From a virus (Duplodnaviria > Heunggongvirae > Uroviricota > Caudoviricetes), in IMG/VR virus record IMGVR_UViG_2541047736_000006: a DNA stretch of 29,571 nt. One strand, 5' to 3'. Position numbers and translations under genes: made by a program. Below the pieces are notes generated by a model. That model worked only from the letters and a program-made list of their open reading frames with translations. It had not been told where the DNA came from and searched no databases. This document shows positions 28,270 through 29,571 of the stretch, piece by piece. Numbering within the stretch: the stretch's first letter is position 1; the number at the start of each line of letters is the position of its first letter.

Positions 28270-28299
28270 TATCTGCAATCAGGCTGGCGCGAGTTCTGT

Positions 28300-28448
28300 T
28301 TTTGTTCGGGCCGGTCTGATTTTCACATACTGTAAGGTTATTGCATATTCCTCCTGGTTTCTTCCCATTTTGACCCAGTTCTTCCCATAAATATCTCACT
28401 TATTCCCTGTCATTTATCTCAAGTCTAATCAACTATTCCTGTTTATCA
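28300..28448. repeat. Prophage right terminus with short direct repeats (candidate transposase-binding sites)
   Basis: GTTTCTTCCCAT (28,357..28,368) and GTTCTTCCCAT (28,378..28,388); TATTCCCTGTCATTTATC and TATTCCTGTTTATCA, the latter ending in CA at 28,447..28,448 just before the host-like ORF. Confidence 0.4.
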
Positions 28449-28449
28449 G

Positions 28450-29571
28450 TTGCGCTATAACGGCAATAACGCCCTGATGTTCGCGACATATCAGGACAAG
28501 ATGCTGGTGTTTTCCAGCACGGATATGCTGTTTAAAGATGATCAGCAGGATACCGAAGCCACGGCGATCGCAAGTGATTTGTTGAGCGGCAAAAAACGCT
28601 GGCAAGCCAGCTTTGGCCTGGAAGAGCGTGCTGCCGAAAAAACGCCAGTACGCCAGCGCATCGTGGCCAGCGCCAGGTTGCTGGGTTTTGGCTACCAGCG
28701 ATTAATGCCTTCTTTTGCTGGCGTACGCTTCGAAATGGGTAACGACGGCTGGCACAGTTTTGTGGCGTTAAATGATGAATCCGCCAGCGTAGATGCCAGT
28801 TTCGATTTTACGCCGGTCTGGAACAGTATGCCTGCCGGGGCCAGCTTCTGTGTGGCGGTGCCGTATTCACACGGTATTGCCGAAGAGATGCTTTCGCACA
28901 TCAGCCAGGAAAACGACAAGCTGAATGGGGCGTTAGACGGTGCCGCGGGGCTGTGCTGGTATGAAGACTCAAAATTGCAAACCCCGCTGTTTGTCGGTCA
29001 GTTTGATGGCACTGCCGAACAGGCGCAATTGCCAGGGAAACTGTTTACGCAAAATATTGGTGCGCACGAAAGCAAAGCGCCAGAAGGTGTTTTGCCGGTA
29101 AGCCAGACTCAGCAGGGCGAAGCGCAAATCTGGCGTCGCGAAGTGAGTTCCCGATACGGCCAGTATCCGAAAGCGCAGGCGGCGCAACCCGATCAATTAA
29201 TGTCGGATTATTTTTTCCGTGTGTCGCTGGCGATGCAAAACAAAACGCTGCTTTTCTCCCTCGATGACACGCTGGTTAATAACGCGCTGCAAACACTGAA
29301 TAAAACCCGCCCGGCAATGGTGGATGTAATACCCACTGATGGCATCGTTCCGCTCTATATCAATCCACAAGGAATAGCGAAACTGCTGCGTAACGAAACG
29401 TTGACCAGTCTGCCGAAGAATCTCGAACCGGTTTTTTATAACGCCGCACAAACTTTATTAATGCCGAAGCTGGACGCTTTATCTCAACAACCGCGTTATG
29501 TCATGAAGCTGGCCCAGATGGAACCCGGTGCCGCCTGGCAGTGGCTACCCATAACCTGGCAGCCGCTATGA
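28450..29571 (+). CDS. Host chromosomal gene, probably 5'-truncated by the prophage insertion
   Basis: 373-codon open frame ending in TGA at the last base of the window. It begins at a TTG with no SD, and the frame is open from 28,429 (in-frame TAA at 28,426..28,428), inside the phage-end repeats. I have a vague memory of an enterobacterial YfaA-type (DUF2138) protein but cannot confirm it. Confidence 0.55.
   Translation: MRYNGNNALMFATYQDKMLVFSSTDMLFKDDQQDTEATAIASDLLSGKKRWQASFGLEERAAEKTPVRQRIVASARLLGFGYQRLMPSFAGVRFEMGNDGWHSFVALNDESASVDASFDFTPVWNSMPAGASFCVAVPYSHGIAEEMLSHISQENDKLNGALDGAAGLCWYEDSKLQTPLFVGQFDGTAEQAQLPGKLFTQNIGAHESKAPEGVLPVSQTQQGEAQIWRREVSSRYGQYPKAQAAQPDQLMSDYFFRVSLAMQNKTLLFSLDDTLVNNALQTLNKTRPAMVDVIPTDGIVPLYINPQGIAKLLRNETLTSLPKNLEPVFYNAAQTLLMPKLDALSQQPRYVMKLAQMEPGAAWQWLPITWQPL

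Follow-up and report, generated by a model that had tools for sequence, protein, structure and literature searches.

The window analyzed here is a stretch of DNA of 29,571 nucleotides, the features of which are collected in Table 1. The phage DNA of the window (28.4 kb) is 99.3% identical to, and colinear with, the EE72d prophage, and it is followed by part of the host gene yfaA. The ORF map and the annotation of the EE72d prophage indicate that the early operon ends at one element end with mor, the stop codon of which occupies positions 28267-28269. The genes for Gam, GemA, and Mor follow the gene for the TnpB-like ATPase, which is annotated in relatives with a start at approximately 23482 and in EE72d as a member of the ExeA family. 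The genes for lysis, head, and a P2-like contractile tail are found on the opposite strand and extend to the far end, which also contains a Gin-like invertase and an invertible tail-fibre segment. This gene order is the same as that of BcepMu and B3, unlike that of Mu, and in both BcepMu and B3 the mor gene likewise adjoins one end.

Table 1. Features of the window, with positions counted from its first nucleotide
Feature	Position	Strand	Remarks
Small terminase (DUF3486 protein)	12959-13504
Cargo region between lysis cassette and repressor	15996-19619		variable among E. coli copies
Dam-type methylase (cargo)	17419-18276
Two uncharacterized cargo proteins	18329-18790 and 18726-19619	-
Repressor, internal	19742-20173	-
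TnpA, DDE (rve) transposase	21702-23471	+	589 aa; Pfam rve only; phrog_310 transposase; would act on the Mor-proximal end
TnpB-like AAA+ transposition ATPase (ExeA family)	23443-24648	+	Pfam AAA_22; phrog_296 DNA transposition protein
mor, late-transcription activator	27880-28269	+	last gene of the early operon, adjoins the element end; Pfam Mor PF08765, E = 1.3e-43
Phage part of the noncoding stretch after mor	28270-28431		162 bp
Hairpin leading into a T-run, located after mor and before the repeats	28277-28321	+	16-nt arms, 81% complementary
TTCTTCCCAT, copy 1	28359-28368	+	64-73 nt in from the end; bottom strand ATGGGAAGAA
TTCTTCCCAT, copy 2	28379-28388	+	44-53 nt in from the end; overlaps the inner edge of R2
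R2 core, putative inner transposase-binding site	28386-28398	-	TGAGATATTTATG, read from the end inward
R1 core, putative terminal transposase-binding site	28411-28421	-	TGAGATAAATG, read from the end inward
Terminal CA-3', right (Mor-proximal) prophage terminus	28430-28431	+	from 13 insertions, host alignment, and rebuilt empty site
Right junction of the window			...TAATCA (phage) followed by ACTATTCCTG
Right copy of the 6-bp target-site duplication, ACTATT	28432-28437	+	yfaA codons 184-185
yfaA, 3' two-thirds (DUF2138)	28432-29571	+	residues 184-562 through the stop codon; severed from its start

The cargo region of the window also encodes phrog_3787 and phrog_2266 proteins, and the copies in FAM21845 and RIVM_C036569 carry instead a nucleoid-associated protein and a 401-aa uncharacterized protein. 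The cargo ORFs gave no defense-system match with PADLOC and no informative match to Pfam. At the beginning of the window, positions 1-191, which belong to the tape-measure gene, match the EE72d prophage at 12581-12772 and again at 12842-13032, approximately 260 bp apart, with identities of 99% and 92%, respectively. This double match points to an internal tandem duplication within the tape-measure gene.

In tblastn comparisons, TnpA was determined to be 68.2% identical to gp09 of BcepMu over 98% of the protein and 56.5% identical to the TnpA of B3 over 100%. Closer matches were found in Escherichia phage PhiKM (98% identical) and Klebsiella phage KP12 (93% identical). The transposase gene of BcepMu is annotated as a "Tn552/IS1604 rve transposase". 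A phmmer search of the PDB with TnpA returned no MuA or TnsB chain and only weak matches to retroviral integrase cores (E > 0.005). Every characteristic of the BcepMu/B3 family for which a test could be made was found in the element. From its gene layout, its TG...CA termini, and its 6-bp duplication, it is a BcepMu/B3-type transposable phage with a Tn552-related transposase, and prophages of this kind are known from earlier work and frequent in E. coli. A query with the final 2.9 kb of the element (25500-28431) had matches in 641 of the 5426 complete E. coli genomes (approximately 12%), and for 614 of these 641 genomes at least 80% of the query was covered at 95-99.9% identity.

A Klebsiella-type relative was also encountered as NZ_CP132021.1, a circular record of 40,540 bp that is labeled "plasmid unnamed" of E. 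coli JCH8249. Its Mor region is 91.6% identical to that of the window, and its prophage is joined to approximately 2.6 kb of chromosomal-looking genes (DUF1116, amidohydrolase). This record resembles less a true plasmid than a transposable-phage genome that was packaged or excised with host DNA attached, or an assembly artefact.

The original prediction described a noncoding stretch of 180 bp after the mor stop codon. The first 162 bp of this stretch are phage DNA, and the remainder belongs to the host. The RNA hairpin after mor folds with a calculated energy of -25.2 kcal/mol (z = -3.3), and in the diverged relative NZ_CP132021.1 a different and unrelated GC-rich hairpin is found at the same position. 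The hairpin in the window is most likely the intrinsic terminator of the early operon, located before the element end. It was not among the results of a simple terminator scan, and an Rfam scan of 27800-28700 (E <= 1) gave no match. An outward sigma-70-like match that faces the truncated yfaA was found at 28322-28349 (TTCACA, 16-nt spacer, CATATT; 9/12). The number of such matches in this region is not above that obtained with shuffled sequences, and thus this match is no evidence of read-out transcription.

The exact end of the element was determined by comparison with other insertions and with the host. The right junctions that were compared are those of the full copies in EE72d, AR_0067, FAM21845, and RIVM_C036569 and nine further junctions. 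All 13 independent right junctions were found to end with ...GTCTAATCA, or ...TCATTTATCTCAAGTCTAATCA in its longer form, and then to pass into unrelated host sequence. The far end of the complete copies always starts with TG, as TGATGCGCCGCGCGATAAATGC..., and in four insertions, including that of the window, the left end reads TGATGCG... and the right end reads ...TAATCA. When positions 27880-29571 were compared by megablast with the 5426 complete E. coli genomes, yfaA was matched in 5396 of them, and all of the yfaA matches begin at query position 552, which corresponds to position 28431 of the window. This pattern of matches identifies the window as E. coli DNA. The full-length matches to 25500-28431 all end at 28431 among the matches listed. 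In none of the 5426 complete genomes were the phage and host parts found in one match, and therefore this site in yfaA is unoccupied in all of them. The alignment to the host begins at 28431/28432, with yfaA sequence from 28432 onward. The right terminus had been placed at 28448, and the true CA is found 17 bp upstream of that position.

From the other insertions, we predicted that the element in the window ends with CA at 28430-28431, that the duplicated host sequence is ACTATT at 28432-28437, and that the left junction reads ...GTGAAACTATT/TGATGCGCC, where the slash marks the junction. The predicted 23-mer was found to occur once in IMG/VR, in a 3.2-kb contig (L009) that spans the gyrA-yfaA spacer and yfaA codons 1-185 and then enters the far end of the element. 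When the host flank of L009 was combined with the host flank of the window, minus one ACTATT, the resulting 1837 bp matched the uninterrupted gyrA-yfaA locus of strain cq9 with 0 mismatches. On the cq9 locus, the host flanks of L009 and of the window have 6 bp in common. An alignment of this kind, together with a comparison of the two ends, had been proposed with the original prediction; the former has now defined the empty site and the 6-bp ACTATT duplication, and in the latter the other end was found to have an inverted-repeat relationship with this one. Contig L009 is separate from the window and is tied to it by the strain-specific ACTATT allele (K-12 has ACTGTT) and by a left end that is 99.5% identical. 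The two would represent the two ends of one insertion, and their origin from the same genome cannot be proven. A search of IMG/VR with the right-junction sequence gave no match.

Intact yfaA encodes a protein of 562 aa and is located downstream of gyrA. The part of yfaA in the window is 100% identical to that of strain cq9, and its product matches the Pfam profile DUF2138 over positions 181-560 of 560. An insertion within a host gene had been anticipated and is confirmed by these results: the element was inserted after codon 185, and YfaA is split after residue 185. At the left junction, the N-terminal fragment is stopped at once by the terminal TGA of the element itself. The C-terminal part is without a start of its own. 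As originally noted, the host frame opens only at 28429, because of an in-frame TAA at 28426-28428, and has no Shine-Dalgarno sequence; the mechanically derived ORF starts with TTG at 28450 and runs to the end of the window, and no GGAG-like motif was found upstream of this TTG. The yfaA gene is knocked out in the strain from which the window derives.

At the three other insertion sites for which both flanks are known, the 6-bp duplications were determined to be GCTATG, CCTTCA, and TCTGTT, and the duplication is thus 6 bp in four of four insertions with both ends known. A duplication of 7 bp is excluded since the base that precedes the duplication is G in the wcaJ case. The four duplications share C2 and T3, and this candidate for a target consensus was lost when 13 sites were considered. 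The 13 insertion flanks are all different, without a consensus, and target choice therefore looks nearly random. In EE72d and AR_0067, two strains from different sources, the prophage occupies one and the same site in wcaJ and is flanked by the GCTATG duplication in both, and this could be due to shared ancestry or to recurrent insertion. The wcaJ gene functions in colanic-acid synthesis, and an insertion in it should abolish the production of colanic acid.

Read from the tip inward, the Mor-proximal end of the element is TGATTAGACT TGAGATAAATG ACAGGGAATAAG TGAGATATTTATG GGAAGAAC TGGGTCAAA ATGGGAAGAA ACC..., and the far end is TGATGCGCCG CGCGATAAATG CACTCTATCTTG TGCGATAAATG G.... Each end contains two G(A/C)GATAWWT cores, which start 12 and 35 nt from the tip with a spacing of 23 bp; the R1-like core of the far end is found 12-20 nt from the tip. 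The E. coli element, BcepMu, and B3 all have this architecture at each of their two ends, namely TG-N9-G(A/C)GATAWWT with the core again 23 bp further in. For BcepMu and B3, the end sequences were taken from GenBank records and later open papers, and the records for KP12 (without approximately 45 nt at each tip) and Ralstonia YO107_2 (not bounded by element ends) were left out of the comparison. In eight ends from three host genera, the invariant positions were determined to be T1, G2, G12, G14, A15, A17, G33, A38, T39, and A40. Positions G12, G14, A15, and A17 are within R1, and positions G33, A38, T39, and A40 are within R2, which aligns with the second site at both ends of BcepMu and of B3. 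Since the ends of the E. coli element, BcepMu, and B3 can be aligned with these invariant positions, two cores are assigned to each end. A difference between the ends is conserved as well: the Mor end reads TGAGAT where the far end reads CGCGAT.

By conservation and analogy, the transposase sites are likely to be the two GAGATAWWT cores, R1 and R2, with their mirrored counterparts at the far end. In the window, GMGATAWWT has exactly two matches, and these are R1 and R2. For this motif and for TTCTTCCCAT-type motifs, two matches were found where approximately one is expected per window, and this is no excess over chance; the argument for the sites rests on their clustering and position and not on their number. 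A literature search found no biochemical dissection of the ends for any BcepMu/B3-family phage. The sequence AAAGAAWTT is also found in the far ends of both BcepMu and B3, at a distance of approximately 72 nt from the tip. At this same distance, the E. coli element has a near-match in its far end, AAAGAATTA (EE72d prophage 3565-3580), which overlaps the stop codon of the invertase. AAAGAAWTT may be a conserved site that is specific to the far end.

Two exact copies of TTCTTCCCAT are present near the Mor end, as had been reported, and they are 20 bp apart from start to start, not 21. There are no other exact copies in the 29.5-kb window. Conservation of the pair was seen in 13 elements from E. 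coli as well as in Phi06_2974 B. Most of the other E. coli elements have C at the position equivalent to 28359, and the shared unit there is therefore the 9-mer TCTTCCCAT. In each of the three phages compared (the E. coli element, BcepMu, and B3), the Mor end has GGG(A) motifs approximately 25, 45, 55, and 65 nt from the tip, and the far end does not. In this array, which in the window covers 28359-28407 with GGG(A)/TCTTCCCAT motifs approximately one helical turn apart, the motifs at 45 and 65 nt are the two TTCTTCCCAT copies. The array would be either a degenerate third site for the transposase or a part of a pac signal.

An array that is not a transposase site could instead be a pac site, or a site for another end-specific or accessory protein, that marks the Mor end for the start of headful packaging. 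This explanation is possible, if somewhat doubtful. It is consistent with the restriction of the array to the Mor end and with the conserved positions of its motifs in the three phages. In the B3-like phage PM105, long tails of host DNA (0.6-2 kb) are found at the non-Mor end (PMC4777764; the orientation was set here by tblastn), and packaging should therefore start at the Mor end. The phage contig of Phi06_2974 B contains only 54 bp of host DNA beyond the Mor end, and in the Klebsiella-type relatives a protein that resembles the N-terminus of the small terminase subunit (phrog_426) is encoded right at the Mor end. In Mu, the end from which packaging starts has the pac site between its first and second transposase sites. 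Copy 2 of TTCTTCCCAT overlaps R2, however, and the segment 54-75 nt from the end can be aligned by eye as a degenerate third copy of R2 (spacing of approximately 21 bp, one gap, 14 of 22 positions), as would be expected from Mu-like ends with three sites. If the array were a site for pac or for an accessory protein, the two ends of the element would be functionally different.

The Klebsiella-type relatives were found to have an extra gene of 109 aa between mor and the element end (NZ_CP132021.1 5410-5739; KP12 224-553). The encoded protein, annotated as "Gp27 family", matches in its first 60 residues the N-terminal part of the small terminase subunit (phrog_426, E = 4e-14). This gene is not present in the element of the window.

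According to the original prediction, the element is of the Mu type and terminates with the CA at 28447-28448, and the two TATTCC(C)TGT..TTTATC motifs are terminal transposase-binding repeats. A CA dinucleotide is indeed present at 28447-28448, and there is a similarity between TATTCCCTGTCATTTATC at 28401-28418 and TATTCCTGTTTATC at 28435-28448. This similarity is gapped and imperfect, however, and the second copy is composed entirely of yfaA sequence: positions 28432-28448 are identical to the uninterrupted locus, and the CA in question is inside the gene. The motif is found beyond ...TAATCA in 0 of the 12 other insertions, and approximately 10% of random host 40-mers equal its alignment score against the phage end; from these two results, the pair is attributed to chance. 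The same comparison led us to reject a related candidate, that the target was picked for its resemblance to the element end. A strict Mu-type assignment must also be abandoned. The transposase is not MuA-like and belongs with those of BcepMu/B3 (Tn552-related), the duplication is 6 bp and not 5 bp, and the early operon is inverted. With a terminus at 28448 already refuted by the exact reconstruction of the empty site, we give this explanation virtually no chance of being correct.

It is scarcely conceivable that the prophage was integrated by site-specific recombination with the short repeats serving as an att core. Such an event would be consistent with short repeats near the junction, and with nothing more. 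No tyrosine or serine integrase was found at either end; the sole recombinase is the Gin-like invertase beside the tail-fibre segment, and the element encodes a DDE transposase together with its AAA+ partner. No two of the 13 flanks are alike, the 6-bp duplications differ in sequence, and this diversity of sites already refutes an att core.

Taken as a whole, the results are best explained by a BcepMu/B3-type transposable prophage that has transposed into E. coli yfaA and whose Mor-proximal end occupies 28270-28431, and we consider this assignment to be highly probable. The original prediction has been borne out as regards a prophage-host junction, a transposable phage that encodes Mor, TG...CA ends, and repeats close to the terminus. 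By homology with Mu- and Tn552-type systems, the DDE transposase would bind to R1 and R2 and to the matching GCGATAAAT sites at the far end, pair the two ends, and then nick at the 3' CA. Together with the AAA+ protein TnpB, the transposase would join the ends to the target with a 6-bp stagger, and gap repair or replication would yield the ACTATT repeat that is observed. The boundary at 28431 and the 6-bp duplication are of value mainly for correct annotation, and the element is to be filed under the BcepMu/B3 (Tn552-related) transposable phages and not under Mu proper. Neither the element nor its kind is new, and there is nothing here that would surprise a specialist. The two-site core with its 23-bp spacing and the GGG array that is found only at the Mor end provide a ready map for footprinting the ends of a common E. 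coli prophage.

The element resembles BcepMu (Bcepmuvirus) and the BcepMu-like myovirus prophages in the order mor-gemA...tnpB-tnpA on one strand at one end, followed by the repressor, and in the genes for lysis, head, and a P2-like contractile tail on the other strand. TG...CA termini, which have been described for BcepMu-type prophages with an rve transposase (PMC2628397), are shared, as are the two-site ends and the difference between them, TGAGAT (Mor end) against CGCGAT (far end). The element differs from BcepMu in its host, which is E. coli instead of Burkholderia, and in its DNA, for which no similarity is detectable. At the far end it has a Gin-like invertase and an invertible tail fibre, whereas BcepMu has an acyltransferase there, and the cargo between the lysis cassette and the repressor is different. 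With B3 (Beetrevirus) and the B3-like phages, the element has in common an early operon that is inverted relative to that of Mu, mor at one end, homologous end motifs, the GGG array of the Mor end, and the 6-bp duplication, TG-CA ends, and Tn552-related TnpA reported for B3 (PMC8705779). B3 differs in being a siphovirus with other tail genes and is more distant in sequence.

In Tn552 from Staphylococcus, each terminal inverted repeat contains two direct repeats of approximately 23 bp, and the duplication is 6-7 bp. The length of these repeats matches the 23-bp spacing of the sites in the E. coli element. The transposase family is referred to as Tn552/IS1604-related (PMC2628397, PMC8705779, and the BcepMu annotation), and an AAA+ partner is a further likeness. 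Tn552 is a small resistance transposon and not a phage, and it is likened to the element here by this description of the family.

Mu exhibits the same near-random transposition, TG...CA ends, and several transposase sites per end, and it shares with the E. coli element homologues of Mor, GemA, and Gam and a Gin-type invertible tail-fibre segment. The element is without the domains that are specific to MuA (Pfam rve only; no MuA chain in the PDB), and its duplication is 6 bp, whereas that of Mu is 5 bp. The repressor of the element is internal and its late genes are on the strand opposite to the early genes, whereas in Mu the repressor is at the left end and all of the other genes are on one strand. 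Because the early operon is inverted relative to that of Mu, it is mor, and not the repressor gene c, that adjoins an end of the element.
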